A DNA stretch of 61,728 nt, the filler included, from Hausera hauseri (Eukaryota), in NCBI GenBank assembly GCA_046269625.1. It is 11 parts of 11 records of this genome, joined end to end, with 100 filler letters (N's around TTAATTAATTAA, not from the genome) between each part and the next. Parts side by side here need not be neighbours in the genome. Positions count along the whole stretch, not along the records: positions 28,931 to 38,761 come from JBJURY010279951.1; positions 38,862 to 45,333 come from JBJURY010096876.1; positions 45,434 to 49,420 come from JBJURY010837970.1; positions 49,521 to 54,595 come from JBJURY010343601.1; positions 54,696 to 61,728 come from JBJURY010042555.1; 6 more parts are not named here. One strand, given 5' to 3'. The position numbers were made by a program, and so were the translations under genes. Under the pieces are notes generated by a model, which saw only the letters and a program-made list of their open reading frames with translations, was not told the origin of the DNA and ran no database searches. Below, one piece after another: positions 28,931 to 61,728 of this stretch; position 1 is the stretch's first letter, and each line of letters begins with the position of its first letter.

Positions 28931-29029
28931 TTTTTGCTGGGCACTTTTGGATCGGTAGTGCACAGTGCGCATTATCGATCGGCACAGGTGCAAAATCGAT
29001 TTATCGATTACCCCCTCCATTATTTTCAC

Positions 29030-29660
29030 ACTACTCTCCATGCAATCTGATATTTTGTTCAATAATGATTTTTCTGGTTTTGATCCTCCTTCTCCAACTA
29101 TATGGCCAAGGTAGGATACTGCATTTTGAGGCCATTTACATTTCTTCGGGTTTAATTTCAATCTTCTTCTGTTTTTGACGATACCATTACATCATCTAAA
29201 TATGCAAAGACATGGCCTTGTCCCATTAACATTTTGTTCATTATTCTTGTAAAAATAGCTGATCCGGTAGTAATACCGAAAGGCAGACGCTGAATTCATA
29301 AACGCCATTGTGTGTTTTGAATGCTGTTTTATATCGATCTTCGTCTTCAATTTCTACTTGCCAATACCCGGATAGTAAATCCAGAGTAGTGAACCATTAC
29401 GCTCCTGAGGGTCTATCTAGAGCCTCCTTTACTGATGGCAATGGGAAAGAATCTTCCATCATAAGATTATTTAATGCTCTTTAGCCAGTGCAGAATCGAT
29501 GTTTTGTAGTACCTTTTTTAACCTTGAGAATTGGTGAATACCAATATCTATAGCTGGGCCTAATAATATCGGCCTTAAGCATCCGTTCTACCCCTTTTGT
29601 TATCTTTGGTCCCAATGAATGAGGTGGAGGATACCATTTCCGCATCTTCTGATCCTCAAA
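29030..29660 (-). pseudogene. Reverse transcriptase, Ty3/Gypsy type
   Basis: FTTLDLLSGYWQV..DRYKTAF, LPFG, FAYLDD (29191-29202), LKLNPKKC..YLGHIV. Confidence 0.93.
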
Positions 29661-30129
29661 GTCTACTTCTTCATTCGAACCTGATTTTTTCTTAAGCGAA
29701 ATAATCACTTTTAATGTTTTTGCTTTACCGATATCTTTGTCGCCTTTAGCAATGATTGATTTATGGTGACACAGCTATTCATAAAATCGGTAGTAAGATT
29801 CAAGTAAACACTTAGTTTCAACATGAGGAGCATTATTTGCTATTCTGATCGGTACGCGACCGGATTGTACTCTTGTCAGTATATTACTGAGTATTATATT
29901 AGGATTTAATGCCTCCTTGGGTTCAAAATATAAAGGTTGATCGTCATTTTGTTGAATTTGCGCATAAATTATTATCGCTGTCCTCGGCAGAATATTTTCA
30001 TCTACTGGTATCCACACTTCTCCAAGTTTCCTATCCTTAGCCTTTTTTATGCCTTTATATTGTCTGATTTCTATTAATTTTCCTGCTTGCAAGTCAACTG
30101 CCATATTATGTAGTCTTTTCAGTAGATCA

Positions 30130-30410
30130 CACAATAGAACTACGTCGTCAGTTTATTGTTCCATAAATACAAATTATTGACAGAAAAGCTGTCCAACTAT
30201 TTGAATTTCTAGGTTCCATTTAAACATTGGTTTTGACATTTGGCCAAAAGATCCTGTACTTCCTGGGTCCATCGTAGATGGCGAATATAATTGTTCTCTT
30301 AGAGTTTGGGGTACTGAACCATTTTTAATGTAAGACATCTCAGAACCCGCATCGATTAATGCGTAAACTTCCCAGTCTTCAATAATGATTTTGGCGAAGG
30401 GTCTTCATAC
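30130..30410 (-). pseudogene. Aspartic protease
   Basis: RPFAKIIIEDWEVYALIDAGSEMSYI, catalytic Asp at 30351-30353. Confidence 0.85.
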
Positions 30411-30829
30411 TATTACTGTTCCAAAACAGTTCAATGCCGCTTTTGATCGTGTAGTTGCCGATATTTTATATCCATTGATTCAAATTTCCGGGGAGGATAC
30501 TATGTTTTCCGACAATTGTTTCCGTTTTCCGTTTGGATATAACTCATTGTTTCCGATGTCCAACTCTTCCGTTTCATGTGTACTAATTAATGGTTCTCGA
30601 TTGTTAGTTTGTGGTTCTATATTCCGGAAGGTTTGTAATCTTTGATTTCCCCAGACAGGCGGTCTAGCCTATATATTCCGAAGTTTTTTCGGAGACTACA
30701 ATATTCTGGGGTCATCCACGGGCTGTCAGTAACACATTTTCCGTAGGACTCCATAACGTTTTGTTCCTTCGTAAGGGTCTTCTAAACTAATTGTCATTTT
30801 ATAGATTTCTGTCTGATATGAACTCATTG

Positions 30830-31772
30830 ATCATTCGTCATCGTTTTGTGATACAATTCGGTTATTCCGACTTGCCCTTTATAACTGACGTAATCGTCTC
30901 GGTTTTTCAGGTAATCCTCAATCCGAAAATCCAGCGTTTCTAGCTTTTAAATATTCGCATTCATTTCCTTTTCGGCGACGATAAATACTTCATAATTAGT
31001 GGCGAACATCACCATTTCGCTGCGGGAGTTCATTTCTTAATAAATTTTAGTCCATACTGGTCGGCGGTCAATATAATAGGTGTATGGTGTTCTGCTATGT
31101 CCTCGCGTATCCTTGGTTAGTATCGGATTTATCTATAAATCGTTTTTCGATGGTTTCGATAAATTTCAATTCATTAATTTTGATAAAATTACAGCTTCTT
31201 CAAAAGGGAGGTTTCCATATTATTACAAAACTTCTGAAGGCACAGGTTCCATCTTGTAAATGGCATTTTTGATTCTCAATGTAATTTGGTGACACTATGG
31301 AACATTACTTTCTGTACCCGCATCTCCGATTTATAGAAACCTACGAACACTACATTCGATTCTAATCCTTTTCTGCTGTCGTATTCTGCTCAATTACAGT
31401 GTCCATTATGCATGTCTAGCCTTCCAACCACTACATTAAATGCTCTAATTATCTTTCCTGGTTGCATCTCTCATTCCATGCTATCCCATTTTACTCTTCC
31501 GGTTTCCCTGGCTTGCTTACAATGCTGGCGTTCCAAATTCACCGGGATTAAAGGCATCGTTGGCTTGATTATTGCATTAATCTACAGTGGAAAATGCTAC
31601 GGGACCGTCTCAACGTACATTCCATTCCATCCAAGGATATCAATTCTTGCTGTTTTCTTGTTTCCAGTTTGTGTGGTTTGGTGTCCTCGCATACTTTTAA
31701 ATCCATTAGAGAATATTTTGTCCTACTTATATGCTTCATTAATATCATCAAAGTGAGTAAGATAATTAACCA
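30830..31772 (-). pseudogene. env: N-terminal half of chuvirus-like glycoprotein
   Basis: Hydrophobic WLIILLTLMILMKHI, then SLMDLKVC..MECTLRRSRSIFHC..GQVGITELY; collinear with 55334-56352. Confidence 0.75.
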
Positions 31773-34700
31773 ATTAGATTCGCTTTTCCGGTTACTATTA
31801 TCCGTCGTTGTCAAATTGCGTAGCATATCTTCGAATCTATTTCTATTTCTAGAACGTTTGTCTTTTTCCTTATGGAATAGTCTCGACCAATTTACTTCGC
31901 AGAGTGGCTTTCTTGCAGCTCTTTGTGCTAAGATGGTAGCTATATTAATTTTATGCTCTCGACGGGGGTTTATTTTGAAATCTAAGTACAATAATACTTT
32001 TCTTAATTCTTCAGTGGTGTGTTCTACCGTGATCTTTTCGATCACCGATTCATAGGTTAACTTACTTTTTGATAGTTTAAAATGTGAACTTCTGATCATC
32101 TTAGCGGCACTGAATATCGCTCTATTTTTATTGTCTAATGGGTCGCCTCGAAGGCTTGAATAATTTACAATTCGTATTAAATTCTTCATTAATTCACTCA
32201 ATTCGTCATTGTCCGTGCCGAAGGTAGAAATCGACATCTGTCTTAATTCTCTAATCAACGCACCATTATAATCGGCTTCTTCTCTTGTTTTCTTAGGTCT
32301 ACCGACTGGGTGTTTCTGTCTTTGACATTGGTTATCGTTTCACTCAGGGGTACTAATTTCTTGTCGTATTGATTCTTGTCTTTATCCGTTTAAATATTCA
32401 AAACACATTGCAGCATCCCGGACTCCCATGATGTATCCTACACATTGTTCTGTCTTGGCCTTACGGGTGGCTTCTTCTTTAGTCTGTTCATTGGCTACTA
32501 TTACCACGATAGGATTTGATGCGTCGAGTATGATCTGAACGTCTATTGACTGTTCTAGATCGTCCAGTATTCTACCTCAAAAGTAGAATCTATAGTTTAG
32601 TTTATTCGTTCCACCATTGCTTATCAACCATTCTCTTACATCTCTCATGTAGGACTACGTAATTAATTCACATTCCTTTTCATCCATCCACTCGCATGAT
32701 ATTTTTACTTTCATCGTTACCTCGGGTATAGCCTTCACGATCTTAGCGTATTTCCATATTAAAAGTTTCGGCACCGCGCTAGAAATTGTGTTTTCACTAG
32801 ATAATTTAGTCAAAGTCGGAATGAGTTGTCTTAATTTGCTTTCGACAATGCTTACATTAATTAGTTCAATTAAATCCCTTTCAGTTAGCGCTGAATCCAG
32901 GAGCATCTCCACATTGAATCTTCTGTTATGTGGACACGTTTCTAATTCGTTTAGCTGTACCGGAGTCACAGAATTCTCGGCCGTTATTGCATCTAAATAC
33001 GCGTCCCATTCCGGTAAATTTCCAACGTCTGGAAGCCCATAGTCCGTCAACGTTGTGTTGAATCTGCACACATTTTCTCGGATTTCTTTCAATTTTTGCT
33101 GTATTTCTTTTATCTGCATAGTTAGGAAACCTATTCCGTTTCCACAGGCATAATGAATCATTTTCAGTAGTTTGGCTAGTTCTTTAGAATGGATGAGTCC
33201 CTTCTGGTGATAATGAGTTAGTTCCATGATTACATCTCTGCCATCTTGGCACCAATTCACGCTTATTTTTAATTTTGGACTCGGTAGAAGCATACTTTTT
33301 CCTATAAGTTTTAAGCTTTTTGGTTAATTCGTCTAACATTGTCGCTCTTTGTTTGGTTTTAATGCACGTTTCTTGGGCCTGTCGTATTTGAGGCATCCAT
33401 TGTCTCATCTTTTCATCAGTAATTTCTGTTATGTCTACTAAAAGAAAAGCTAGCTCATACATTTCATTAACGATTTTTGAGTCGGGATCTATCGCATCGA
33501 GCAATTTCTTTACGAACTTAGCTTCTGCAAAACTAAGATGAGGGTAGTTTCTTATTTTTTTCAACTTGGTATGACAGTTCTGATCTGTTCCAACCATACA
33601 TTCTTGTGGTTTATGTATGAATCTCATGGCTTCTTCCATAACCGTTTTATGTTCTGGACAGATATCTAAAGTTTCAATATCCTGGACAAAAATTTCGTCG
33701 GTAGACTTAGCTTTTAAATGTTGGATTCCTTCTAAACGGACATTCCTTATTCTTGGATAAAAATTGCAAGTCATATTCTGCTTTTTTGTGAAGTTTGTTT
33801 CTTCGATCATTTTATATATCTCTTCCAATATCGATACTTCTTGTTTCTTCTTCATAAAATTTAATCATCGTAATGCTTTGAATTGAGTCCGAATATCTAT
33901 TTCCGCTTGGATTGAATCTAAGTTACTGCACTTTCTTCTAATTGTTTCTTTACAGAAGGCTCCCTTTCTAGAAAATCTTACTAATTTACTTAGTCTCGCT
34001 GCTAATTTGGACTATTTATGCAGTTGATTCGCCATCACAGGTTTTACCAATATCGCCTTGTCTAGCAATTTATAAGCATCCTTTAATTCATCATCTGCAC
34101 ATTTTATGAAATTCATAATCCGGCTGACATAATCGAACTCATCCTTATATTCGTCAAATTCTATGATACAAGCCTTTATTACATACTTGGTTTCCGCGTT
34201 ATTCATAAACATAATTCGATTCCTCAAGCTACCAATTTATGTTCTCTTTTCATTCTCTATTTTAACACTATCCTCTAAATTCGCGCATTGCCTAGGCACA
34301 GCGAAGGAAATTTTTATCATTTCCATTAAAGGAGGAATGTCTACCGATTCTATAGCCAATATTTCTAAATCAATATCACTGCGATCGCAAACCGGTTTTA
34401 CTCTAAGTCGATTAATCATTGTACATCGAATTTCATCCATCAAGTGTTCTAAATTACGAACTACTCTCTATTTTTAGATTAGCTTCTAGTGTAGATAATA
34501 ACGTTTGAGCCTTGGCTACTTTCACATCAACACTATCTTTTCTTTTACTCCATCCTTCCGAGAATTTGACTCCACTTTTAATCCATCATTCTAATTCACG
34601 TTTCCATTTTATTAACGGTTGGTACCTCTTCAGGTTGTCCTAAATCGATTGCTTCATCGAGCTTTCCTTCACTGCATAATTTTAAACTTTTATGTAACCT

Positions 34701-35530
34701 CTCCGCAAATTGTTGCTCTTTTCCGCATATATCTACTTGTTTGTTAATCTGTTTAAGTCTTTCTAATTTTCATTTTCTTTAATACTTTGGCGTTTTTCCA
34801 CAAACGTCGAATTTTTTATTTTTTGGATCGAAATCATCAATATTTCGCGTTTCTTCCTCACTAGTGGGAAGTGGGCAAATCTCGTTAATATCGTTAACCG
34901 ACTCTACATATTCTTTTACTTCGATAGGTGTAAATTGACCAATTTGTGACGCATTTAAGGTAGGCTCTACGACACTCCCTACAGCGATGTTCGTATCTAT
35001 CGTTTCTTCTATCTGCTCTTTAGTTATTTGCGAACGTGAACGACTTCTACGTTTCGTTTTTAATAAAGGGCTGCGGCTTCTATTTTTCGTAATTTTAAGT
35101 ATTAATGGCTCCATAAATTCTTTTTCTTCTACCTCATCTTCGGTAACCTTGTCTACTTTTCCAACCTTGAACTCGGGCTCTGCATTTAAGTCGACTTCTG
35201 TCGAAGTTCCTGGTTTATCTGCTGTTCTATTACTTGTTAGCACACTCTTTTTCCGTGTCATATCAATTCGCTTTGGTGCTATCGCATATTCACATTCACT
35301 TTTTGTTTCTGCTAAACCATGATACACTTCTAATAGCCTTAATTTAACTGCGTATGTTTTAGCCATCAAAATTTGTGGGTTAATAGTCTCAGGCTGAGTA
35401 TCTAGAAAGTTTTGCAAATTTTGTATGTCGATAATAGTGCTCGTGTCTCCACGATCACCATACTTTACTTCCAAGTTTTTCTTCACTTTAAGCATACTAA
35501 TCTTATTAGGCTCAGTAAATGAAACGCTAC
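31773..35530 (-). pseudogene. Large unknown helical region X between gag and glycoprotein
   Basis: Chain of same-strand ORFs 34779..35675, 34237..34443, 34012..34227, 33184..33855, 32655..33293, 31569..32258 separated by stops and frameshifts. Confidence 0.65.
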
Positions 35531-36566
35531 GTGGATTGGGGTATGACCGTGCAATGCGTCCTTCTCCACCGCAGGTAAAATAAACTAAATTTCCATTTCT
35601 GCCGACTCTCTTCCGGCAGCCTCCATTCACAGGTGACTTGGACCTATTTGTGCTCCTATTGTCCTGGTTTGACAACCCTTGCGTAATATTACATTTCGCA
35701 GATTACTATTATTTTGACTATCCTCGTAACGATTTCGATAGTTAAAACCTTTATCCGTATTTGGATTCGACTTATTTGTATTTCGATTGTTAGCGTAATT
35801 ATTATTTCGGCTATTCCTGTAGTCGTTATTATTCCTATTTTCACAATTTCTACTTCCATTAAATCGCCTATCATCTCTTCCGCGATTATCGTTCAATTCT
35901 CATCGCCATGATCGTTCCGATTATTATTTCTATCATTTCTATCATTGTGTATGGTATACCTATCGAGTGTCATTTCTAAGTCTTGGACCAATTGCAGAGT
36001 TTTCTCGAAATTCTCAGGTCTGGCCAAAATCAACTTTTTAACTAAATCTCGGGACCAAATACCATTAATTAATTGAGTTGTCATTATGACGTCTAAATCT
36101 GGCGGAGTTGCCTTTTCCGAAGCATCGCGTTCTGCGTCAGTTTTAGCTTTTGCTACATTAGCTATCCTCAAGGTACTTACATAACTATTATCGAGTTTTT
36201 TAATGCAAATGCAAACTGGGTTACCTATTCACCCTTCTGTTGCACTCTACTTTGAAATGCCATAAGCTTCTGTTATGGAGTTACTGTCGGCAATAATTTA
36301 CGGTATAATGTTCCTACCAAGGAGGACCAAGATTTTTTTTCATCGTTGGTGAGTTCACTGTAAGCATCGGCGGCTAGATTCTTTAAATGTAATGATAAGC
36401 GTTTTATTGTTACTTCAGGAGTAAGACTAGCACCTTCTGCGTGCAATTTATAAGTTTTCAAGAATTCGTTAAGCCCGTCCGGGTCTCCGTCAGATGCCTG
36501 CAGGTTTAGAGAATCGAACGTGAAAATGTCCAACTTCTGCGCTACTGGTGGGTTATTTGCTGCCAT
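35530..36566 (-). pseudogene. gag: Gag: capsid, N/R-rich linker, degenerate CCHC knuckle
   Basis: LSLHLKNLAADAYSEL..SWSSLVGTL; RVQQKGE; QLINGI; knuckle YFTCGGEGRIARSYP at ~35540-35585. Confidence 0.85.
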
Positions 36567-36948
36567 ATTATTTACGTTATTTAGCTCTAAATTTGCTTTA
36601 TTTACTTTAGTTTACTCGAGTGGAATTTTAAACTGTTTATTTTGCGCGACAACGTCTAGTTTAATTCTATTCTCGGAATTTGAACGTTTATCTACCTTTT
36701 GTGTTTCTCTATATATATTTCGACGTGTCTCACGTATAGGTGAATTGTCTTTTAATATATGATTTATTTCTGACCTATCAATGTTTGTTCTCTCTTAAGT
36801 TCTGCTTACTTATCCCCGTAAAAATAGCCTATATACCCACATTTTAAATTCCGATTCTGAATAAATCAAGTTACTCGATGTGATGGCGCTGTTCGCAGGT
36901 ATGTAATTATTTAACTTTGATAAGTAAAGTCTAGCAAGGTACAGACTG

Positions 36949-36965
36949 TCCTGCTAGGGTCGTCA
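36949..36965 (-). promoter_or_regulatory. Primer-binding site, tRNA-Arg-like, degenerate
   Basis: TGACGACCCTAGCAGGA 2 nt inside the LTR end, resembling the complement of an invertebrate tRNA-Arg 3' end. Confidence 0.6.
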
Positions 36966-36967
36966 AA

Positions 36968-37728
36968 TGTTATATATTGGGGTAGCCCTACCCGTCTTCC
37001 ACTATATAACAGTAAGTTTCACTTAAAGTTAAGATTTTCTGTGCAGGTCGGTCTACCGTACTTGAATAGACAGACTGTACTCTAACGATTTAAAGATTAC
37101 TATTCTGGTATATGCGTGCGATCCTGTGCCAATAATTTTGAATAATTCTCACTCTTAACTATGTGATTTTACACTCTGATTTTAATCTTAATGTTGTCAA
37201 ATCACCCTTAAGGGGCGAAGGAAAACTATGGGTAATTTAGAAACAAGATAAACTTTACCGAATACTATAATTTCTGAAACGATAACACGAACTATAGAAT
37301 CACCAATTTGATAATAGTCAATAACTGAATTCTCGAACAAATGTTTCTCCAATAGTCAATAAATTTCAACTCACACGATCAATTAGACTCCAAAAATTTC
37401 TGATTCTGCCATGATTTTACAAGCCTTATATAGTTCTATCAGCTCGGGTAATTTCTTTTCGCCCACGTTTTCTGTTAATTTCTCAATAATTTGATTTATT
37501 TCAATGCCGATAATTCGCCAGAGCAATAACTAGTTTTCGATAATTTGACGTTTATAATTCATCAACGATAATTAAACTAACTAATATTTCTTTCTAATAA
37601 TATCTAATTTCTGTTCTTACTACAATTTTCTGTTTAATCAATCCGCTAATTCGCTATGTACAAATCTGCCATTTCGACTATTTACAATTTTGCCATTTCA
37701 CTATTGCATGATACCAGTTATTACAACA
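36968..37728 (-). repeat. 5' LTR of copy A (761 bp, TGTT...AACA)
   Basis: Shares start TGTTGT, internal CCCTTAAGG..GATTTGAC and end AGGGC.ACCCCAAT.TATAACA with the other LTRs. Confidence 0.88.
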
Positions 37729-37825
37729 TACCCACAAAATCAGTAAAATAAATTATGAAAGTGGTACTAAATCTTCTAGAGAAATAAATTGTGCAGAGGA
37801 TCAACATAAAAATTCGGCCGTCGAA

Positions 37826-38761
37826 GTGTCGATGACCAAATCGGAAGTCATCGACACTCAGGTGACCCATTTAATTGGGTTACCGCGTGGTTTATCTTTA
37901 TATTTTTATGTAAAAAATTCGTCAGCAGAGGAACGAGCCGTTGTTTTTTATAATCACCTCGAGCGTCACCTTTATAATAAGACCGCGAGGCTTTTCTTAC
38001 CCAATGCAGCATCCATTCCAAATAATCTTAAGGGATACAAAGTTCAACAAAGAACGTTCACGATCCTAAAAATGGAAGACCTTTGTTGCGTTCCCTAGAA
38101 ACCTTATTAGAATATACCTCAAAACTCGAGGGTATCACCATATCCGTTGTACGAGGAAATATCCAATTAGTAGTTAAGGATGAACAAAAAAGAGAAATCA
38201 CAAAACTATATCTATAGAGCCTAAAAATACCTTTCACCTTTACCAAATTCTAAGATATAAACGAAAACTGTTAATTCGATTAGAAACTGAACGAGTCCTA
38301 TTAGGCATAGAAGCCACCCAACAAGAAAATATATATACCAACTAACACCCCTAAACCAAGGTTTGAATTAATGATAGCAATCCCAAATATAAGAACGGGA
38401 ATTTCTTTTAGACGGAATTCAATAGTTGCAGAAAAAGGCCAATTAATAATAGCAACACTATTAGCCTTGCAATCCCAAAAGATAGCATCTTCCATAGAAA
38501 TTGCCATAATTGACCTACAAGGAGTAACAATCAAGAACCAGCTAATAACCCCGCGCGAGAAGATTGAAAATTATGATTCTCATATAACAGGCCTCCAAGA
38601 AACAGACGTTAGAGGTAAAACGGACTATTATGAAGCCCGTAAAATTATACTGAGCCTGATAAAAGGAAAAATACTCGTGGGATGCCAATTGGCCTATGTT
38701 ATAGAGCACCTGTTCCAAATAGATCTCCTATTTGTCCAGGGACTAAGAGACCTAATGTATT
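37826..38761 (+). pseudogene. Divergent paralogue of the accessory pseudo-exonuclease gene, outside the LTR on the opposite strand
   Basis: LFLPNAASI..ILKMED matches VFIPKSKSI..ILKVNE; IAIIDLQG..ITP..IENYDSHITGL..LIKGKILVG..LRD is REX4-like without D-x-E. Confidence 0.7.
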
Positions 38762-38861: not shown

Positions 38862-38966
38862 AACCTGACAACTACAGAACAGGTTATTCTGTCATTCAAC
38901 AAAGAATTGGTTTTGGTTTAAAACAATCCTTTGTTGTAGGATTAACCTTTATATTCTTTTTTTCAG
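38862..38966 (+). promoter_or_regulatory. Two hairpins, branch point, polypyrimidine tract and splice acceptor (copy B)
   Basis: aacctg..caggtt; aacaaagaatt..aatcctttgtt; ttaac; ttctttttttcAG; conserved at 58499-58607. Confidence 0.7.
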
Positions 38967-38967
38967 A

Positions 38968-41386
38968 TTGGTAAGTAACCAGACCGAAATGGATAGTCGA
39001 ATTACTATCGACGAGTTCATGAAGACCCAGACAACAGTATTCATTCCCAAGTCAAAGTCGATCTACCGATTCATAAACGACGCTTTACGGGCAAAAACGC
39101 AAATTGAGATATTAAAAGTGAACGAAATCCCCAACGATCTTAAAACTATAACGGAAGAAAACCGGTTCGTTTACCTTTACGCCTGGAGAGAAAACGAACA
39201 AGCAAAGGCTTATTCTATGAAAGAATTGATTCGGAAACAACCAGACAAAATCCAAGAAGTCTATCTGCATCTGGCTGAAGGAGAGCTATATTATCGGATC
39301 AACAACCAACCTTGGAATTCCCAAGAGGGACGACAGTTCAGATTTAGCACGTTTAGATTTAAAGGGTCGAAAAGTATAGATTGCAATTTGGAATTTAGAG
39401 TAGCAGCTCTTCCTACCAAAATCATGATAGAAGTAACTTATAGAGAAAACGATAAACCCAGTTTGCCTATTCTGAAGTTCGATCAAATCCCAACAGAAGC
39501 AGAAATAGACGAACACTCTCAATCATACAGGATGGTAACAGACGGACGTAACGTGAGAATTCTAGCAACAAATTGTGGTAGAGGAGACGACGGATATGGA
39601 ATTCCTATCGAAATATCTGTTAGAGAAAGAGACGGAGCCGAACTATACTCCACTATTATAAATCCACGAAAACGAGTACAAGAGTCATACGTGGAGGTAA
39701 CAGGGCTAAGAAAAGAGCAGCTTATGAATGGAAAGGACATTAACCAAGTTCGTTATGAATTAGAGCATTGCCTCTACGGATGCATGATAGCAGGATATCA
39801 TGTACGGCAGGAAATAAAGCTATTAGGGATATCCGATGCAAATATTGCCGGATTTAGGGAAATAGCTGCCCATCCAGTGGTCCAGAAAAGGATGGAGGAA
39901 ACCGCAAAAGGCAGGAATCAGTCAACGGCGCCTGAAGCTTTTTTTAAATTGATGATAGAATCAATGATTCCCAACCCAAATAGAATTCCAAGATTTTTAT
40001 CGGCAAGACAACGATCCCGACACTTACAAGAAATTTACAAAATGCTGAAATGGGAACACGAATGGATACCTCAAAATCCCGAGTATAACCTACGATGTTC
40101 GCTAACACCTGAAGCAATCGATACCAGATACCGTCGGAACATCAAACCCTATTCTCCGGTTAGAACCGTTCAGCCAATAGGAGAAAACAGTCTCTCAGTT
40201 ACGATTCAGAAATCAATTGAAACAGGAAATAAAGAAGCTCAGCCACCGACGACGGGAAACCAATCAACAAGGATTGCAAAGAAACGAGACGAGCCCAAAA
40301 CGGAAATTTTAATTAAGAAACCTAAGTTAGAAGAGCAACCCAAACCCAAAAGAACCTTGTCCATTTATGACTATTTATTTAAGAAAAGGAAGGTAAACCC
40401 CGAACAAGAAATAGGAAGACAACAAGACAGGCCAGGTACATCAAGGAATATAAGTTCGGACGGAAAGAAATTTAAAAGCCCCGTAATAACCGAAATTAAC
40501 TCCTTAATCAAAAGGAAAGACAAAGGAGAGGTACATTATAAAACAGTTCAAGACTTTCCCAAAATGCTAGTAACTACGGAATATTATAGTAAAAAATGAT
40601 CAAGGAAGCGGTGTTCTATGTGAAGATGACACCGGCAAGAGAAGTCTTTGAAAACACGTACATTTTGGAAAACCCCAAACTGGGAAAATACCTCACATCA
40701 GTATTTTGCTCCAAAAGAACGGGGAAAATAGTAGTTTCCGTAGACAAGCAGATTAGGATTCTGCTAAAGAAACAATATCAAAAATATAAGGTAGAAGGAC
40801 AGATTCCCGATTTAGATCAAGAATTTATGGCGGATTGAACGTTAATCCAAGTAGATTGCGATCCGCGGAAAAGTTCAGTGAATCCCAAACAGAAAATAAT
40901 CCACGGATATCTATATCAAGATGGCGAAGGAATCACCTTTGAGCCAATCGAGTTAACCATTCAAGTCGATTTAGATCGAGACGATTGGGGAAAGAAGAAA
41001 ATGAATGCCCTGTATGCGAAGCCAATCTACAACAGAAATACGTAATACTAGATAATAAGAACTGCCGTCACAAGTATTGCAGAGATTGCTTGGAGAAATG
41101 GACCCTAGACAATGGGAAAACCACGTGTCCGGTATGCCGTGCGGAGGCTGCCGAGTTAAAATATTATTCAAACGGGAGCTACATTCGAGTGGTCAGAATA
41201 CAACCCCATTACAGTTATAACATTGAACCAAGACCTTCAACAAGTCAAGCTATATCAGACTCTCTATTGGACTTGCAAGAAAGAATGAACCAGTTAAGAG
41301 GAACGAGACAATTGGGCGCCATCTCTCCTGACGCAATAGGCACATCCGAGGATGTCGTTCAGGGAGGAGATGTTGTGAAAGACTAA
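38968..41386 (+). pseudogene. Accessory gene: N domain - inactive DEDDh (REX4/ISG20-like) exonuclease - linker - unknown domain - RING-HC finger
   Basis: 543-aa ORF (ILATNCG..LYSTIINP..VTGL..CMIAGY), 40596..40838 and RING CPVC..CRHKYCRDCLEKW..CPVC in 40985..41386; copy C reads through the 40596 break. Confidence 0.8.
41361..41370 (+). promoter_or_regulatory. Polypurine tract
   Basis: AGGGAGGAGA directly before LTR; same tract at 60781. Confidence 0.85.
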
Positions 41387-42171
41387 TTCTAATTCAACTC
41401 GAATCGATTATGAGAGAAAAACTAAATTGCTGTTGGCTTAGTTGATTGTGTACATATAATTCAAAATTGATTCATTGTAAATAGAATACAATTAGAAAAA
41501 ATTACGCGATATTTACAGCCATATAATGCAGTGCATTTTAATCAAAAAAATAAACAATGTTTTGAAATCGCGGAAATTGCCAAATAAATACCGATAATGA
41601 AAAATAAATTGAAAAAGCACCTGCTTCGAACTATAAATACGAGATCGAATGAGAAAGAAGGAGAACAATTTTTGATCGACTGTAGCGTCGGTTAAACCTG
41701 CGATTTTGAAACTTATTTGCGAAAAGTTTTTCCTCGACTGTAGTGTCGAACAGCTAGTTATTCATTGACTATAGAGTTGATTGGTGTTGTGAAGATTTCA
41801 GTGATCCATTCAGTGATATTCAACAGTGCTAAAGACATTCATTGATTGCTGTGATCCTTTGTGTTGGCTATTACATTGGTATATTATTGATCCTTTTCTA
41901 AATTCCCACTATAGTTTTTCATCGGCCCTTAAGGCTGATTTGACGACCGTAAGAAGTAAAATTTACTTAAACTCTTATAGGCACGAGAACGCTATTTAAC
42001 CGTTGCACAAGACACGACACGCAGTACACGCAGTTTTTTTTTAAAAATCAATATACATTGGCACATTCGTTTAACAAGAACGTTAAACCGAATCTGCATA
42101 AGAGACTAACTTCCAGAGTAAACTACTGTTATATAGCGGAAGATCGATAAGGGCCACCCCAATCTATAACA
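41371..42171 (+). repeat. 3' LTR of copy B (801 bp)
   Basis: TGTTGTG...CTATAACA, TATAAA ~41632, preceded by PPT, homologous to the other two LTRs. Confidence 0.9.
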
Positions 42172-42263
42172 CTACCACTACTGCAAAAAGTAGCACATGT
42201 TTAGCCCCAACAAAATTTTTTAAAAGTAGTTTATGAACGACTAGTGCTTATTAATACTGAAAT

Positions 42264-43170
42264 TTATTGCTCTTTGCTATAATCCGTTCGATCAACCTGT
42301 CCATTGTTAACATCGTGTGGGATATCACTTAGACTTAAAACTACGACACATGTTTTAGGCATAATATCAACCAAGCACCGTAAGTCTACCGCTGTTATAA
42401 TATAAAACCACGAGTTGATGACAGCCGCAATCTGTTCATACTTGTTCGATGGCCGATTTGCCGCTATTGTTCGCTTGAGCCTTTCCCAGAAGTTTTCTAT
42501 CGGGTTGAGATCCGGACTGTTGCCTTGCCAATCAAGCAATTCAATCCTGCTTTGTTTAAACCAAGTTAAACATTTCTTGGCAGTGTGATACGGAGTACCA
42601 TCTTGCAGGCAAATGAACGAAACTCTTTTACCGCATATGTTTCGAGTTGAAGAACCTCCTTGATATACTTGTCAGTGATTCCGGTTCCTTCAAGAACGTG
42701 CAGTCATCCAACGGAATCCCTTGACATGCAGTCTCACATCATTATGCTCAATGGATATTTCATTGTGTCAGTTGTGCATTCTTCACCCGGTCGTTGACGA
42801 ACATAGAGCAGACAATCGCTGCAGAAAATCAAAATGCGCGTCCAATCGCTCCACAGAACTTTTTTACATGGCAAGTCTGTCCAGCTAATGTGCTCTATGA
42901 TCTACTGCAGACTTTTAAGACTTTGCTTCACATTGAGAAACACTTTTTGAGAAACCTGTGTCCGCAGGCCTGCCGTCACTAATCTCCGGCGAATTGTTCG
43001 GTTTGATATTGCCACCCGGTGACATTCAGCGACTAGTTGATGTCAACAGCAGTGGCCTTAAGATTCCATAATGCTTGATTCCATAGTCTGAAGTGTTACA
43101 ATTCGACGATCAGTCTGTGACTTGTTACTTTCTTCTCGTCTCTTCCCTTCTTGTTTTTTCATGGATCCCC
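42264..43170 (-). mobile_element. Tc1-like transposase relic
   Basis: QDGTPYHTAK and LDWQGNSPDLNPIENFW motifs. Confidence 0.88.
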
Positions 43171-43619
43171 TATAAACTAAATCATTTGAGGCAACACGGA
43201 GGCATCGAAATGGTTGACAGCGGTGTATGACAGTTTCATCAATAACTGAAAGGACTTGAAATTCAAACAATGACGAAATCAGAGATACTTCAGATATCAA
43301 GCATTATCTTGTGATAAAAATGAAAACAATCTTATCGTGTAAATGGAATAATGATAATATACGTTGTGAGGATATAACCGAGAACTGAAATTCTAAATTT
43401 AAATTACAGACATTTTTATATTTTAAAAATTCGACCATGGATTTAATTCAAAAACGTAATATTAAAAGTATCATTTAATTTTTGAATTTTTTGAAAATTT
43501 GTTTCCAAATGAGTATTTTGAGATACAATAAAATTTTCAACTGGTGTTACTTTTTAATGAGTAATTACAAACGACAAAATTATGCTTTGACGGACATACC
43601 AGTGAGCGGGGATTTTCCA

Positions 43620-44200: not shown

Positions 44201-44405
44201 GTTCTGTAACAGTCTTGTTGTAAGTTATATTCATACTACCTTTCAATGTCACCGGTGCGTAGGGAAAGTTAAATTCCGTCAGTGCAACCTCCCATTTTCA
44301 AGATAGGTCCAAAGGATTGTTCCAATCTACAACGTATTTACTGGCTGAATTGTTCGGACGAGTCATCTGACAACTGTTGCTCGGCAACACCATGTAAATA
44401 CTCAT
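44200..44405 (-). pseudogene. Polinton minor capsid protein (penton) copy 2, N-terminus only
   Basis: MSIYMVLPSNSCQMTRPNNSASKYVVDWNNPLDLS*KWEVALTEFNFP. Confidence 0.8.
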
Positions 44406-44411
44406 TGTTTA

Positions 44412-49116: not shown

Positions 49117-49420
49117 TTTGGCCTAGTAAGGAGCAAAAAAGGGTGGATCATGTGTTAAAGAAAATATCTGAAACCCTTTGAAATATATTTTGCATAAGAG
49201 TTGATTATTCAACGTACCGATAGTTCAAAAAGTTTCTATTTAAGGAAACAAATGTCTTTTCCATTCTGTTCATTTAGCTCTAAAGATCAAAAAGGTGCTC
49301 AAAGTGCAGCTAAAGACAGGAAGGACATAAAATATAATGATTTATCTGTTTTTATTTACTTGTACTATAATCAGATATCAGTGTTTCAGTATACACTCTC
49401 TGATATTATTATTATTTTAT

Positions 49421-49520: not shown

Positions 49521-49544
49521 ATTTTCTCCCTCCCTTCCTCTCAG

Positions 49545-51618: not shown

Positions 51619-51930
51619 ATGTTGTTGTTGTTGGATGTCCTCATCGCCGAGTGTCAGCGCTTATGGATGAGCCCTGATAAGGGCTGTAGTCCTAAGAAGG
51701 ACTCAGGAGTAGTTGTGTTGTGTATTCCTGCTGTCTCAGTGGAGTCTAGTAGGGTGGACCGGGGTCCTCCAGGCTTTAGTGCGATGCTTGACCTCCTAGA
51801 ATTGATCCACTTCTCAACTTGGGGACTGTGGACGATCCTTCCAACGTTGGCCAAAACTGCTTCTGTTTCCAGGACGCACTACGAGGAAGTGTTGGAAGGT
51901 CTTGGCCCGTATGTTGGTTCCTGGCTCTGA
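51619..51930 (-). repeat. 3' end of non-LTR retrotransposon, copy 2
   Basis: Reverse complement of 50745-51040 with (CAA)n tail. Confidence 0.7.
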
Positions 51931-54595: not shown

Positions 54596-54695
54596 NNNNN
54601 NNNNNNNNNNNNNNNNNNNNNNNNNNNNNNNNNNNNNNNTTAATTAATTAANNNNNNNNNNNNNNNNNNNNNNNNNNNNNNNNNNNNNNNNNNNN
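54596..54695. other. Artificial spacer 10
   Basis: N44-TTAATTAATTAA-N44. Confidence 0.98.
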
Positions 54696-55333
54696 AGTCC
54701 GAGATGCTGCAATGTATTTCGAGTATTTACAAACGGATGAGGACAAGGAACAATACGACAAGAATTTAGTGCCACTGAGTGGAATAATAGCCAATTTTCC
54801 AAGGCCGAAACGCCCAGTCAACAGGCCTAAGAAGGCGCGAGAAGAAGTTGACTATAACGGAGAATTGATTAGAGAGTTTAGACAAATGTCGATTTTAATG
54901 AAGAATTAAACGAATTAATGAAGAATTTAATACGCATTGTAAATTATTCAAGACTTCGAGGTGACACATTAGATGATAAAGAAAAAGCAATATTCAATGT
55001 AGCTAGAATGATGAAAGTTCACGTTTCAAGTTATCAAAAATTAACTTAACCCATGAATTGGTAATCGAAAAGATCATGGTAGAAAACATCAATGAAGAAT
55101 TAAGAAAAGTATTACTATAGTTAGCTATCAAAATAAACCCTGATCGAGAGAATGAAATTAATAGAGCTACAAGCTTATCACGAAGAGCGGCAAGAAAGCT
55201 AACCTGCGAAGTAAATTGGTCGAGACTATTCGACAAGGAAGAAGACAAACGGTTCGGTAATAGTAATAGACTCGAGGATATGTTACGTAATTAGGTAACA
55301 ACCGGTAATAATAATCGGAAAAACGAATCAAGT
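54696..55333 (+). pseudogene. C-terminal part of unknown region X
   Basis: VRDAAMYFEYL..QYDKNLVPLS..DYNGELIREFRQMS..LMKNLIRIVNYS matches 31773-32425. Confidence 0.75.
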
Positions 55334-56932
55334 TGGCTAATCAGCTTACTCACCTTGAGTATACTAATAAAGCACATATGAGCTATTACCGTCTATGACT
55401 GCGATAAGTTTAAACTAGGGCAGAGATATTCCATAATGGATTTAAAAGTGTGCGAAGATTCCAAGCCGCACAAGTTATAAACGAAAGACAAAAATTATTT
55501 TCTGTACCAACAACAAGAATTGATATTACTAGATGGAATGGAATGTATGCCGAGACAATCTCGTAGCATTTTTCACTGTGAAATAATACACGGACATTCT
55601 TCAATAATCAAACCAACAACTCCTCAAATTCCTATGAACTTAAAACACCAGCACTGCAAGCAGGCTAAGGAGACCGGAAGAGTGCAATGGGACAGTATGG
55701 AATTAGAAATGTAACCAGGAAAGATAATTAGGGCGTACAAGGTTGTGGTCGGAAGGTTAGACATGCATAACGTATATTATAACAAAGCGGAATACGACAC
55801 GGGAAAAGGATTACAAGCAAAGGTAGTGGTCGTGGATTTCTATGAACGAGAGATGCGAGCACAGAAAGTAATGTTCCATAGTGTCACCAAACTATATACC
55901 GAGAATCAGAAATGTCATTTACATGACGTAACCTGTGCTTTTAGAAGTTCTGTTATAATGTGGGTACCTCCCTCTGGAAGAAGCTGTAATTTTATCAAAA
56001 TTAAGGAATTAAAGTTTAATGAAACTACCGGAAAGTGATATGTGGATAAATCTGATACAAACTCAAGGACACGCGAAGACGTATCAGAACATCCCACGCC
56101 CACTATATTAATCTCTGATCAGCATGGACTAAACTTTATTAAGAAAGAAATGATTTCTCGTTGTAAAGTGGTGATGATCGCTACTAACCATAAGGCGTTT
56201 TTCGTCGCCGAGACAGAAATAAATGCCAAGAATTACAAGTTAGAAACGCAAGATATCCGAATTGAGGATTATCTGAAAAACACAGACGATTACTTACATT
56301 ACAAAGGGCAAGTCGGAACAACCAAGTTATATCTTAAAATGATAACAAATGATTGTAAATTGGATTCCTATATGAGAAGGAATTTTGGTCGAGTTACCGA
56401 CGAAGTACTATTGACTTACGAATGTGAGAAAAGTGATATACCAATCAACTTTGAAGAAAAACGCTGCATGCAGAAACTTCCCGTTATTTACCAGAATATT
56501 ACAAGGTTAGCTATGCCACACACTATGGTGCTATTAAACAATGCAAATGAACCTACAATCCATAAGGATTGTAAAGCAAGCTTAGAAGAACCCATGTTTA
56601 GACGCAGTGAAACAGATTGTGTTAGTTTGCCAAATGGAGGTATTACTGCCGCTCCAAAAAATTAACAGAAACAAATCTTGCAAAAGGAATTACAAAAGAC
56701 AAATTTCAAGGCACCTCGTCAAAAGACATATATAGGCCTAAGGAAATCGAAGCCTTCAGACAATTCCTCGCTTTTCCGCGACAGGAGACACACAAATTAA
56801 ACCGAGCCATAGCCTCCGTAGTAGACGATACTCGATATCAGGCTAAATGGGAATCTTTGCTTGGCGTAAATCATTATCAGCGAGTAACCACATAAATACT
56901 CTACAAAATTTGGGGAAGATTTTTGATTTTTG
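55334..56932 (+). pseudogene. env: Chuvirus-like (class III, gB-type) envelope glycoprotein, truncated just before the TM anchor
   Basis: Signal peptide, VYDC, C..RQSRSIFHC...GHSS, WVPP..SC, ATNH, KLY..ITNDCKL, YEC..RC..KLPV.Y.N, IY....EAFRQFLAFP, KIWGRFLIF; one frame to 56665 with point stops. Confidence 0.78.
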
Positions 56933-57086
56933 ACCGTACGAAGTTACCAGAGCTACGCCAACCACAGTATACACCAACACTAATGGAAAGGAAGAGGTCA
57001 TGTCAGTACAAAGAGTTGTGAAGACGGAGATATGGCCCAATAAACGTTACAATTTACGCCAACGCGAGATAAAACTTCCTCAATAA
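56933..57086 (+). pseudogene. Integrase C-terminal GPY/SH3-like tail
   Basis: PYEVTRATPTTVYTNTNGKEEVMSVQRVVK..RYNLRQR. Confidence 0.65.
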
Positions 57087-57099
57087 TTGCTAGACCAAT

Positions 57100-58455
57100 A
57101 TCATATGTTCAGATAGTTTTAGCATTATCGTTAATTGCTTCTTATATCCTGAGAACAAAAGCTCAATGATGGGACGATGAAACTACGCTAGGAGATGTTT
57201 ACGGAATTCGAAAGAGCGGATCAAGGTCGAAAGTTATTAAAACGGAAAAGAAACGAACAGTCGAAGAAATGCAAAACAAGAAGACACAAAGTTCTTAAAA
57301 TCAATGACGATTCATTACTTTTAGCCAGACACTATGTGCGTCGGATTTAAAACTTGGAGACCTCATCGCAATTTCGGAAGATTTCAAATTTTCCCATATG
57401 ATGTAACAACAAAAGAAGTAAAAAACTGTGACCTTGAACTCGGAGATTATTTTCAGTGCTGCGACGTAGATTTTGAACATGTTTACATCCTTTCTTATCG
57501 AGTGTTCTTACCAGTCTCATCAGAAATCTATATGGAAGTAAACCCACAAAATGTGTTGATTATTCCATCTTGGCCCGGGCGATTCGGAAGGAAGCCCGAT
57601 GAAATTCTACAGTTCACCAACCCATATATAAGGCAATTAGATGAAAATATCAAAGGAATCGCGGTAAACCAGGAAAAACAATGCATTCAAATAGATGCTC
57701 GAACAGGATTAACTTTTAGTCAAGAAATTAGTATCATTTTCGAAGCAGTGAACGGAAAAACCCCGAGAATAAATTACTGTTCTGTTCATGCCGGTATGCA
57801 ACGCCCATGTTGTAAGTTACCAGTAAACCAAGAATTCGAAATAAAATTCGACTTATATGAAGTAAGACCGAATAAACCGAGCAAACATTTGCGGACTTAC
57901 TATACGAAAAATAGAGTATTGAGGATTCCAGTAGAAACGATTACCAAAAGGCCAATTACTCGAGTTAGTGCCATTACGAGACCGGCTACGTCGAGCAGTG
58001 TCCCTAAAAGAGAACTAGGAAGCATACCTATTAAATATTCGACGCATCGATCTAAAATTGTGTTCTTTGTAGAAGAAAAACAAATTTACGATATACACAT
58101 AAGTTGCCGAACAACCCATAATAATCACATTGTAACATTACTTAAAAGCACTTATCAGACAGAATGTTGTTTGTTGAAACCGCAATCTGATTACATAGTA
58201 CAAATAAATGCAGAAGATAAACAAAACCAAACAATTACATTACGTACCTTGGACAAATTTCGTGCAGAATCGCATACATATGAAAATATAGACGATGAAA
58301 TCACAACTCCACTCACCATACAAGCACCACTGAGATTAACCACTTTACCGATCGTATCTATTTTTGTAATGTTAACGTTTGTTCTCATTATACTAATTGC
58401 GATTTTTCTGTTAGTTTTCAAAAACTATTATTCCAAGCGTCCTAACATTACATAA
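57100..58455 (+). CDS. Type I membrane protein with FN3-like domain; signal peptide ~57100-57170 disconnected from the 373-aa ORF 57334..58455
   Basis: YVQIVLALSLIASYILRTKAQ; LKPQSDYIVQINA resembles FN3 L.P.T.Y.V.V.A; TM IVSIFVMLTFVLIILIAIFLLVF. Confidence 0.65.
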
Positions 58456-58498
58456 TTGGAACTAACGGAATTGGAAACCCCTATTGTTCCGTATGATA

Positions 58499-58607
58499 AA
58501 ATAACCTGACAACTACAGATCGGGTTATTCTATCATCTAACAAAGAATTAGTTTCATTTTAAAATCATCCTTTGTTTTAAGATTAACTTTTACTGTTTAT
58601 TTTTTAG
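58499..58607 (+). promoter_or_regulatory. Two hairpins, branch point, polypyrimidine tract and splice acceptor (copy C)
   Basis: aataacctga..tcgggttatt; aacaaagaat..atcctttgtt; ttaac; tttttttAG. Confidence 0.7.
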
Positions 58608-60790
58608 ACCGATAAGTAAAGAGAGAAATACGAAAACGGATACCGCACGACCTAGGATCGACGGACCACGATCTATCCAAGAACGAGAACGATGTAGTAT
58701 CGATAAATTACCAAAACGCCGACTTAGTATTGACAAGTTCTTGCAGAATTACGCTACCGTGTTTCTCCCAAATTCTAAATCAATATATAATTCTGTCAAC
58801 AACCGTCAGAAAAGGATTTGGACACATTCCTACAATCGTATAGACTAGTGAAAATGTCAGAAATACCAGAATCGTAGCAATCAATTGTGGAGGAGGAGAT
58901 GGCGCACGAAGGATTCCAATGGAAGTCTTAGTTCGAGAAACGAACGGAACAGAAATATATTGTACGATTATCAGCCCGAGAAAATGCGTTCGCGAGACAT
59001 ACTTTGATACGACAGGAATTCGTAAGGAAACACTCTTGAAAGGTAGAGATATCAAACTTGTTCAGGCAGAGTTAGAACATTGTTTATACGGATATATTAT
59101 AAGTGGATATCGCATCGATATCATTGTCGAACTCTTAGAAATACCCATGTCAAGCATCGTAGAAATGCGCGAGATAAGATTACATCCAGTAGTCGCCGAG
59201 CAGAACAAACGAATATTGCGAGAAAGGAATTACCCCGCACCAAAAGTAATGGATGCCTATTTCAAATTAATGGTCGACGCCATGAATAGCGAACATGTTA
59301 AGATTATCAAACTGTTAATCGCACGTCAACAAACTCAATACTTGAGAGACATTTACGTAGCTTTAAAATGGGGCCATGAGTGGACACCCAGTAATCCAGA
59401 ACAAAATTTAAGAAGTACATCCGAACCAGAAACTATGAACAAAAAGTATCGGAAGCAGTATTGTTCGTATTATTTGTGTAGAGTCGTGGAACACATGGGA
59501 CAGGATATAATCAAAATAACTATTCGGAAATTAGATCAATCGTGCACTGATGTGCCAAGCACCAGCTATGGTTCTCATATCAAACCAATTTAAGAAATAA
59601 AATCTACAATCAAGGAAATAGAAGCAATTCAGACATTCAAAGTACCCAAAATTCCACCAAAAAATAGAAAGTTGGAACACAAATTTTCTTAATCAAAAGA
59701 AAATTATCCATCTATAATTACTTGTTCAAAAAGAAAAATAAAGGAACAAGCTCAAACCAAGCTCAAGAAGACCGAACCGATAAAACGAACGAAGAACCCG
59801 AAATTTCAGAGATAGCAAGAGAAATTCTTACGACGTCCACAAATGACCAAATGGCAATCCCAGAAAAACCCAAGAGAAAAACATACAAGCACAAGAACCT
59901 AGTGAGCGGATATCAACAACTGTTCACTGAAGTAAATATCCTAAGAAAAAGGAATTCCCAAGAATATGTACATTTTGCAACAACTAAGGATTACCCAAAG
60001 ATGCTAATAACTACCGAGTATTATAGTCATCAGAAAATTAAAGAAGCGATGTTTTTCGTTAAGACCACACCAGCTCGAGAAGTATACGAAAATACCTACA
60101 TTTTGGAAAATCCTAAAATAGGAAGGTATATTGCACCAGTTTTCCAATCGAAAAGAAACGGCAAGTTAACAGTGCCAGTAAATAAACAAATGAAAACAGT
60201 ATCAGAAGTATCAAACGCATGGCGAAATTCCCGATTTAGATCGAGATACCATCGCCGATTGGATCTTAGTACCAGTAGGTTGTGACCCCAAAAAGAGTTC
60301 TGTAAACCCTAAACAAAAGAGAATCCATGGTTACCTATATCAAGATAAAGATGGTCTCATATTCGAACCTATAGAGCTCACAATAAGAGTAGATTTAGAC
60401 GATGAGAAATGGGATAAAGAGGAAAACGAATGCCAAGTATGTGAAGCACATATCAGTAAAGGATACGTTGTTTTGAATAACCGTGATTGCCGACACAAAT
60501 AGTGCGAGATTGCTTGGAAAAATGGACCCTAGATAATGGCAATACCACCTGTCCGGTGTGTAGAGCCGAAGCAACTAAACTGAAATACTTTTCGAACGGT
60601 AGTTACACCCGTGTAGTTCGAATAAAACCCCATTACAGTTATGAATTGGAAACGAATCCCCGAGAAACCCAGCCAAATACGGACTCAGAAGTGAGCTTAC
60701 GTAGACGAATAAATCTCCTAAGACAACCACGTTATGGCGTACCTCTCCTGATGCAATGGGCACATCCAAGGATGCCGCTCAGGGAGGAGA
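58608..60790 (+). pseudogene. Accessory pseudo-exonuclease-RING gene, copy C, internally deleted and frameshifted
   Basis: VFLPNSKSIY; IVAINCG..IYCTIISP..TTGI..ELEHCLYG; PKMLITTEYYS..TPAREVYENTYILENP; CQVC..CRHK..DCLEKW..CPVC. Confidence 0.8.
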
Positions 60791-60792
60791 AA
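60781..60792 (+). promoter_or_regulatory. Polypurine tract
   Basis: AGGGAGGAGAAA before LTR. Confidence 0.85.
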
Positions 60793-61728
60793 TGTTGTAA
60801 AGACGTTCAGAAAGATGTAAGACGTCCAAATTGTAAATACTATTATAAGCAGCATATTGTAAATATTTATTATTTTATAATATTTTCCATTATTGTACAA
60901 ACTTAAGAATTTGTACAAATATAAAGAAGGAATTTAGCAATAATTTGATATATTTTTAGAAAATTAGGAAAAAGCATTGAATTTATTAATTTTTAAATCA
61001 GAAAATACTGAAAAATTCAGCTAAACTATTTACAATTCCAAGAATATAAAATAAAATTAGTCACGTATGCAGTTGCATTAGTATATAAGCAAGTAGCAGA
61101 TATGAAATTTTTGAGTTGTTTGAAAGTTTATTCGAAGTTTTATTTGAGAATTATTTGAGATTACTCGAACTTCATTAGAGAAGTTTTCAATTGAGTTTAT
61201 TTGCGATGTTGAAAAGTCGTTGAAGATATTTGAAAGTTATTGCAAAGACGATATTCAGAAGCTTCCTTAACAGAGATAATTTCGAGAAATTAAATTGAAG
61301 AAGCATTGCAGAAGAGTTCCAGAAGTTTTCGAAAAAGCATCGAGAATTATTGTCGGGTTGCGAAATAGATTCCTGAAACAGTTCATTTCATCTTCAATTC
61401 CGATACCGGAGGTGTATCCAAGATGACGTAATTGTTGTTATTGTAAAAATATACTTGTTATTCTAAAATTCTTATATAGTTTCTCATTGCCCCTTAAGGG
61501 GGATTTGACTACACTAAGGTCTTCAATTCTACTGTAAAATTATATAGTTAAGAGGAGAATTTGTTAAACATTTTGCACAAGACCGCTAGCGAGTACCAGC
61601 ATTATTGATTAAACTAATTGTTATAAGGTACAATCTGTCTATTCGATAACGGTAGACCTTACCTGCATTAAGGTACTCAAATCTCAAGTGTAATTATTGT
61701 TATATAGTGGGAGTTGTATAAGGGCCAC
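60793..61728 (+). repeat. 3' LTR of copy C, last ~14 nt cut off by window end
   Basis: TGTTGTAAAGAC start; CCCTTAAGGGGGATTTGAC ~61490; ends TGTTATATAG..AGGGCCAC like the other LTRs. Confidence 0.88.

Follow-up and report, generated by a model that had tools for sequence, protein, structure and literature searches.

A decayed, high-copy Ty3/Gypsy family in a Hausera hauseri assembly, with a gB-type fusogen gene upstream of protease and reverse transcriptase and a probable second membrane-protein and pseudonuclease–RING module at its 3′ end

Complex retroviruses carry extra 3′ genes behind a splice acceptor. Among Ty3/Gypsy elements, errantiviruses with a GAG-ENV-POL gene order and an ENV of the herpes simplex virus (HSV)/glycoprotein B (gB) type occur in Platyhelminthes, Bryozoa, and Nematoda (Chary and Hayashi, eLife 2026, PMC13524379). 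The available text of that paper catalogs these elements with gag, env, and pol alone, supplement 1 lists spans of about 10–13 kb for elements with mapped long terminal repeats (LTRs), the main text does not contain the words 'accessory', 'RING', or 'exonuclease', and other arrangements of open reading frames (ORFs) lie outside its survey. The planarian Gypsy elements Burro/GYPSM1 exceed 30 kb, have an in-frame env flanked by gag and pol, are present in thousands of copies, and carry BIR, BCL2, MATH, ankyrin, and ubiquitin-like domains as well as RING/apoptosis cargo; in the available text, 'fibronectin' is absent and 'exonuclease' is used only for Terminons (Arkhipova and Yushenova, 2019, PMC6431247). 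Juno and Vesta, Gypsy-like elements of bdelloid rotifers, carry an active DEDDy exonuclease, ORF3, 3′ of pol (Rodriguez et al., 2017, PMC5408684). Here, we analyze a 61,728-nt stretch of DNA (the window) made of 11 contigs of the Hausera hauseri assembly GCA_046269625.1 with N spacers in between, three of which hold copies of one Ty3/Gypsy family: copy A (28931–38761), copy B (38862–45333), and copy C (54696–61728). We consider it probable that A, B, and C represent, in a decayed and internally deleted state, a high-copy family in which a gB-type fusogen lies between gag and pol and in which a gene for a likely fibronectin type III (FN3)-like membrane protein and a gene for a likely pseudonuclease–RING protein follow the integrase.

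Read from its 5′ LTR inward, copy A has the order LTR, primer-binding site (PBS), gag, a long region that we call X, a cut glycoprotein gene, aspartic protease (PR), and reverse transcriptase (RT). Copy C has the order X, glycoprotein, a gap, a membrane-protein gene, an accessory gene, polypurine tract (PPT), and LTR (Table 1). All three copies are broken. A and C overlap in region X and the glycoprotein, with a match of 75.6% over 1675 columns (30830–32424 against 54696–56353), and B and C overlap in a non-coding block with splice-like signals and in the accessory gene, at 79% (38862–38990), 65% (39556–39799), and 69% (40510–41383). Mismatches between copies at the first, second, and third codon positions numbered 48/43/108 in the glycoprotein, 28/22/53, 15/9/39, and 12/13/43 in the accessory gene, and 25/24/55 in the RING piece. 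This excess at third positions, present in five of the five segments compared, indicates that the genes were under selection while the subfamilies diverged. Run X1, possibly the source sample, placed 13,108 contigs on copy C, covering 30/30 bins, with most 85–95% alike, and run X2 placed 721 contigs, covering 28/30 bins; in both runs, most contigs were <95% alike. Summed contig depth was lower over the FN3-like and accessory genes than over the conserved blocks, a difference that we did not use because contig depth cannot rank genes. Both overlaps and the existence of a diverged family had been proposed in an earlier, sequence-only reading of the window, and these measurements bear them out.

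Over the last 300 nt of LTRs A, B, and C, the three pairwise alignments scored 104, 151, and 102, whereas 100 shuffles per pair reached at most 33, 31, and 30, and the homology of the copy A LTR to those of B and C covers its 3′ ~270 nt. Upstream of LTRs B and C stands the same purine tract, AGGGAGGAGA, which the window contains only at these two places. Thus, the three homologous LTRs, the PBS-like site next to LTR A, and the shared PPT of the sequence-only reading were all recovered, and the set of Ty3/Gypsy hallmarks (TG...CA LTRs, PBS, and PPT) is present but distributed over three copies. The PBS of copy A is tentatively tRNA-Arg-like; four similar PBS rows in supplement 1 of Chary and Hayashi (2026) are labeled Arg (2) or Asn (2). 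The left flank of copy A and the right flank of copy B form no target-site duplication, indicating that A and B are different insertions, and none of the three copies has both ends. Downstream of the copy B LTR, at 42264–42671 (−), 43479–44306 (+), and 44412–44975 (−), lie a Tc1-type DDE_3 piece detected by Pfam and two ORFs recognized by eye and blank in Pfam, one gag-like and the other resembling a Polinton penton.

Table 1. Features of copies A, B, and C; positions count along the window
Feature	Position	Strand	Remarks
5′ LTR, copy A	36968–37728	−	761 nt; TGTTGT...TATAACA (TG...CA)
PBS-like site, copy A	36948–36965	−	2 nt past LTR; TGG start imperfect
gag, copy A	35560–36566	−	stops and frameshifts; degenerate zinc knuckle by eye; position
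Region X, copy A	31790–35560	−	about 1250 decayed codons (~3.8 kb); low-stop frames
Glycoprotein front half, copy A	30830–31790	−	76% to copy C; cut at about 30830
Stretch in frame leading into PR, copy A	30414–30829	−	no family assigned
PR, linker, and RT front, copy A	28931–30413	−	DAGS motif in PR, YLDD in RT; runs to contig end
Conserved non-coding block, copy B	38862–38966	+	ends in pyrimidine tract (16/18 pyrimidines) and AG
Accessory gene, copy B	38989–41386	+	4 frame pieces; N-terminal domain, likely DEDDh-like pseudonuclease, low-complexity linker, C3HC4 RING
PPT, copy B	41356–41370	+	purine tract before LTR
3′ LTR, copy B	41371–42171	+	801 nt; ends identical to copy A LTR
End of region X, copy C	54696–55321	+	homology to copy A
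Class III gB/chuvirus-like glycoprotein, copy C	55322–56932	+	signal-like hydrophobic stretch and ectodomain; stops and one frameshift
Putative integrase C-terminal tail, copy C	56934–57089	+	51 codons; GPY/F-like by eye; after internal deletion
Type I membrane-protein gene, copy C	57086–58500	+	broken; signal peptide, three predicted FN3-like domains, transmembrane helix, short tail
Conserved non-coding block, copy C	58503–58629	+	127 nt; 79% to copy B; acceptor-like AG at 58607
Accessory gene, copy C	58720–60790	+	without about 410 nt present in B; broken
PPT, copy C	60776–60790	+	purine tract before LTR
3′ LTR, copy C	60793–61728	+	936 nt; starts TGTTGT; truncated by contig end

Profile matches assign the glycoprotein to the class III gB/chuvirus-like fusogen family. 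With stops read as unspecified residues, 55322–56662 matched positions 6–345 of the Monjiviricetes_fusion model (E = 2.1e-15) and 56626–56931 matched positions 471–547 of its 653 (E = 0.017); the Pfam Env match, PF24664, scored 56.2 bits against a cut-off of 27. A search of PDB sequences with Env was blank or gave chance-level hits, and a protein search with the glycoprotein piece returned no relatives among 320 candidates. By hydropathy, the copy C glycoprotein stops short of any transmembrane helix. Copy A has lost the back half of the glycoprotein, because its homology to C ends at 30830 and the next 430 nt match nothing anywhere in copy C. Upstream, region X contains no convincing Pfam family in its decayed sequence; weak Pfam scores for Transposase_31, Vip3A_N, and Rap1a were judged to be chance matches.

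On the far side of the glycoprotein, a Gypsy-type RT follows an aspartic protease in copy A, with Pfam matches to RVP (E = 0.04) and RVT_1 (E = 4e-7, and E = 7e-7 for the piece with YLDD). A PR–RT query retrieved 35 generic Pol relatives whose domain content is of the Gypsy type and includes RT_RNaseH, and none of the 35 has an Env domain listed. The linker between PR and RT has no Pfam match and sits at what we take to be a dUTPase-like position. Late-domain motifs were sought in five pieces of copy A, and none was found. Pfam thus supports the glycoprotein, PR, and RT of the sequence-only reading, as it does the RING discussed below, and its placement of a fusogen upstream of PR–RT stands, as do its second membrane protein and its accessory gene at the 3′ end. 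Its gag assignment, based on position and on a zinc knuckle seen by eye, was not confirmed, the Retrotrans_gag match (E = 0.15) being below the cut-off; env between gag and pol is seen in copy A with this sub-threshold gag.

The membrane-protein gene of copy C had two intact relatives among 1.84 billion protein representatives, P0001 (479 amino acids, 33% to the copy C gene) and P0002 (189 amino acids, 46%), each from one ENA contig. The source contig of P0001 measures 4.9 kb; that of P0002 is 16,242 nt long, near the estimated size of the element. P0001 also matches the signal-peptide piece of copy C, and the copy C gene, P0001, and P0002 alike have a C-terminal transmembrane helix and a Y-x-x-I-T ending. 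Domains 1 and 2 of P0001 are internal repeats (z = 10.2). The best Foldseek matches of the P0001 structure model were tandem FN3 arrays (best E = 5e-8), and Atlas leads concur with an FN3-like ectodomain (scores ≤0.86), the look-alikes being cytokine-receptor and adhesion ectodomains; a comparison of the model with viral folds yielded generic matches only.

In copy C, the conserved non-coding block begins at the stop codon of the membrane-protein gene. Rfam gave no match for this block, its folding does not exceed that of shuffled sequence (z = −1.76 and −0.49), and its consensus-like acceptor suggests putative splicing of the accessory gene. Spliced-leader trans-splicing occurs in flatworms and would fit the same acceptor-like signal. 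In copy B, a donor-like GTAAGT lies at 38967–38976 (+), 4 nt past the acceptor-like AG, and is not conserved in C. The accessory gene comprises about 800 codons, broken at different positions in B and C, as expected of one ancestral ORF. Its C-terminus is a C3HC4 RING (Pfam, E = 1.8e-9). Its middle part is RNase_T/ISG20-like, with an Atlas score of 0.90 and a BLASTP match (E = 1e-5) to an RNase_T-like ORF at 38311. At what we presume to be the ExoI and ExoII catalytic motif positions, the aligned ExoI-/ExoII-like stretches have no acidic residues, and the domain is likely a pseudonuclease. PDB sequences matched the accessory protein at chance level only, including one PolC exonuclease domain (E = 0.92), and a protein search with the accessory ORF found no relatives among 4542 candidates. 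The ORF at 38311–38761 (+) is a second exonuclease-like sequence (RNase_T, E = 1.4e-4) just outside the 5′ LTR of copy A and on the opposite strand; it is 21% identical to the accessory gene, has no obvious catalytic acids, and is perhaps cargo of a neighboring element.

How, then, does RT relate to these 3′ genes? They are connected transitively rather than physically, by way of the X/glycoprotein block and the LTR end that the copies have in common. At the gap in copy C, run X2 has 2 contigs that depart from the copy C sequence at 56921 and 6 that do so at 56932, which fits an internal deletion in this copy. RNase H (RH) and the core of the integrase (IN) of this family, both part of the sequence-only reading, are absent from the window by Pfam, and that claim was not upheld: what remains is the tail at 56934, recognized by eye and blank in profiles. 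A decayed Gypsy element on the first contig was considered as the missing pol and rejected as unrelated (34% to the RT of copy A). That element (113–4050, +) has RT as well as the only RNase H and integrase core in the window, and its front is related to 16135–16551. The visible parts of the family, with one LTR counted, total about 14.5 kb, and the estimate of 16–17 kb adds an assumed 2 kb or so for the part of pol not seen.

Several results weigh against the layout that we favor. None of copies A, B, and C joins RT to the 3′ genes; the tiling of the sequence-only reading agrees with every overlap and lacks a single locus that spans it. The polyprotein frame is coding-like throughout, but stops, frameshifts, and the deletion interrupt it, and its continuity is not demonstrable. 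The 51-residue tail (56934–57086) had no Pfam match and was missed by a profile of eight GPY/F tails run against 1953 frame pieces. Over their first two thirds, the LTRs cannot be aligned better than shuffled sequence (scores of 22–30 against shuffle means of 23–25); with A and C only 76% alike, subfamilies may differ in cargo. FN3-like remains a prediction because the P0001 model is weak (predicted local distance difference test [pLDDT] 58; predicted template modeling score [pTM] 0.31), because the fold assignment comes from Foldseek and Atlas leads, with Foldseek TM-scores ≤0.17 by query length, and because no repeat is detectable in domain 3 (z ≤ 2.5); Pfam fn3 reached only E = 0.12. For the accessory gene, Pfam detected no exonuclease domain in B or C, and structure prediction failed (pLDDT 31). 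Searches beyond the assembly did not supply a joining locus either: among metagenome contigs, a protein scan gave 0/276 and a PPT–LTR motif scan 18 loci, scans of viral contigs turned up a single locus, the phage-like chance match L001, and none of these 19 loci was homologous beyond the motif.

The 3′ module could instead come from a pol-less, non-autonomous or sister subfamily of the C/B type, with A-type elements having another 3′ end or none, so that the tiling would join two kinds of element. Copy C has no pol between the glycoprotein and the membrane-protein gene, copy A ends in RT, the LTR fronts cannot be aligned among the three copies, and 27 X1 contigs carry other sequence before 58492. 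We nevertheless consider this unlikely: the junction in C cuts the glycoprotein just before the transmembrane helix, the X2 contigs that continue differently there fit a deletion that other copies lack, and an integrase-like tail, identified by eye, precedes the membrane-protein gene. The gene orders of A and C could also be assembly chimeras of a repetitive family, given short contigs from a mixed sample and the fact that no listed X1 or X2 piece spans copy C. Chimerism would, however, have to explain why A and C independently place the glycoprotein after X, why B and C independently show block, accessory gene, PPT, and LTR, and why the gene order agrees with elements in the available text of two published studies (PMC13524379; PMC6431247), and it is very improbable.

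If the tiled layout of our preferred reading is correct, genomic RNA from the 5′ LTR would be translated into a single Gag-X-Env-PR-RT-RH-IN polyprotein, as described for Burro. An internal signal sequence would direct the Env ectodomain to the secretory lumen, the Env transmembrane helix would return the chain to the cytosol, and Pol would stay tethered to the Env tail until PR releases it. The FN3-like protein would start where pol ends, would carry a signal peptide of its own, would reach the same membrane with a conserved tyrosine motif in its tail, and may assist the fusogen in attachment or adhesion. The gB of herpesviruses depends on partner proteins. The pseudonuclease–RING protein would be translated from a subgenomic RNA that arises by splicing or trans-splicing, and may bind nucleic acid without cleaving it and ubiquitinate host RNA-defense proteins. 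In its strongest form, which we offer tentatively and regard as somewhat unlikely, this model describes a two-glycoprotein metavirus, with a class III fusogen inside the Gag-Pol polyprotein, a separate FN3 attachment protein occupying the former env slot, and, for counter-defense, an RNA-binding E3 ligase that is expressed by splicing and derived from a dead ISG20/REX4-like nuclease; such a genome would be of complex-retrovirus grade and would have evolved independently in an invertebrate retrotransposon. Also doubtful is the same layout with other functions: the FN3-like protein would be a captured fragment of a host receptor that serves as a surface decoy or blocks superinfection, and the RING protein would modulate host pathways of ubiquitination or apoptosis, the role suggested for Burro cargo. 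This idea draws on the cytokine-receptor and adhesion look-alikes, on the cataloging of gB-type errantiviruses with gag, env, and pol alone in the available text of PMC13524379, and on the interpretation of Burro cargo as host-pathway modulators in that of PMC6431247. Two observations speak against capture: no close cellular donor appeared, only the two relatives among the 1.84 billion representatives, and the FN3-like gene occupies the canonical env slot and keeps a sorting-like tail.

Compared with the GAG-ENV-POL errantiviruses, as the available text presents them (Chary and Hayashi, 2026), the present family shares a Ty3/gypsy pol, a class III Env, an env gene flanked by gag and pol, and multiple copies, and differs in its long region X, its second membrane-protein gene, its 3′ accessory gene, and the absence of an intact copy. 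With Burro, as reviewed in 2019 (PMC6431247), it shares giant size, a long Gag–Env cargo region, an env gene placed between gag and pol (here in a coding-like but interrupted frame), thousands of copies, a domain separating PR from RT, RING/ubiquitin-related cargo, and accessory ORFs; this likeness is one of description, and Pfam found none of the BIR, BCL2, MATH, ankyrin, or ubiquitin-like domains of Burro here, where X is decayed. The distance from LTR start to Env is 5.9 kb here, and the family falls short of the >30 kb and the cargo of Burro. Juno and Vesta likewise have an extra ORF of an exonuclease family 3′ of pol. Theirs, in the available account, is of the DEDDy type with intact catalytic residues and replaces env, whereas the domain here is RNase_T/ISG20-like, has apparently lost those residues, is fused to a RING, and exists besides env. 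The placement of additional 3′ genes after a splice-acceptor-like site recalls complex retroviruses, unlike which the family has Gypsy-type RT relatives and an Env that is class III and 5′ of pol rather than class I and 3′ of pol; the likeness is an analogy, not membership. The sequence-only reading did not recognize the architecture as described, and for the core layout this does not hold: the gag-env-pol layout, giant size, and regulatory cargo are in the available text of PMC13524379 and PMC6431247. Neither size, nor env position, nor regulatory cargo is new, and the 3′ module was not found in print. No FN3 membrane gene or pseudonuclease–RING gene in a Gypsy element turned up in a literature search that, beyond the three papers cited, covered listings and abstract openings and was made without most subscription papers or Repbase; Repbase or the supplements of Grohme 2018 may describe further Burro ORFs. 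The module may be a trait that flatworm elements have in common and that annotation has missed.

The sample itself looks mixed because the observed/expected CpG ratio is 0.24–0.43 in two contigs and about 0.7–1.4 in the others. The two CpG-depleted, vertebrate-like contigs (4151–8847 and 45434–49420) stand beside non-depleted ones, and the latter of the two has a weak ExoX-like_C match at 48394–49122. The host of the element is probably a flatworm, by analogy with the gene-order precedents. An eIF4E piece of 184 uninterrupted codons (23039–23593, −) gave no indication of host phylum when compared, and what we take to be a schistosome eIF4E structure entry ranked low against it. Elsewhere in the window are a 486-codon ORF without a Pfam match (20472–21932, −) and an Endonuclease_7-like ORF adjoining a 303-codon ORF without a Pfam match (27456–28738, −). 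A match to the hepatitis delta virus (HDV)-like ribozyme drz-agam-1 (51837–51911, −; 30.6 bits, E = 0.014, under the gathering score of 37) sits inside a 200–300-nt repeat with three copies on that contig.

The value of these copies is limited, as the core layout is already known and A, B, and C are dead. How gB-type errantiviruses choose their target cells is an open question, these elements being cataloged with Env alone in the available text of Chary and Hayashi (2026). The second membrane protein, conserved and encoded in the env slot, offers a concrete candidate for a fusogen partner, and the likely pseudonuclease–RING protein offers one for an antagonist of host RNA defense. Surveys limited to gag, env, and pol would overlook both the FN3-like and the RING genes.

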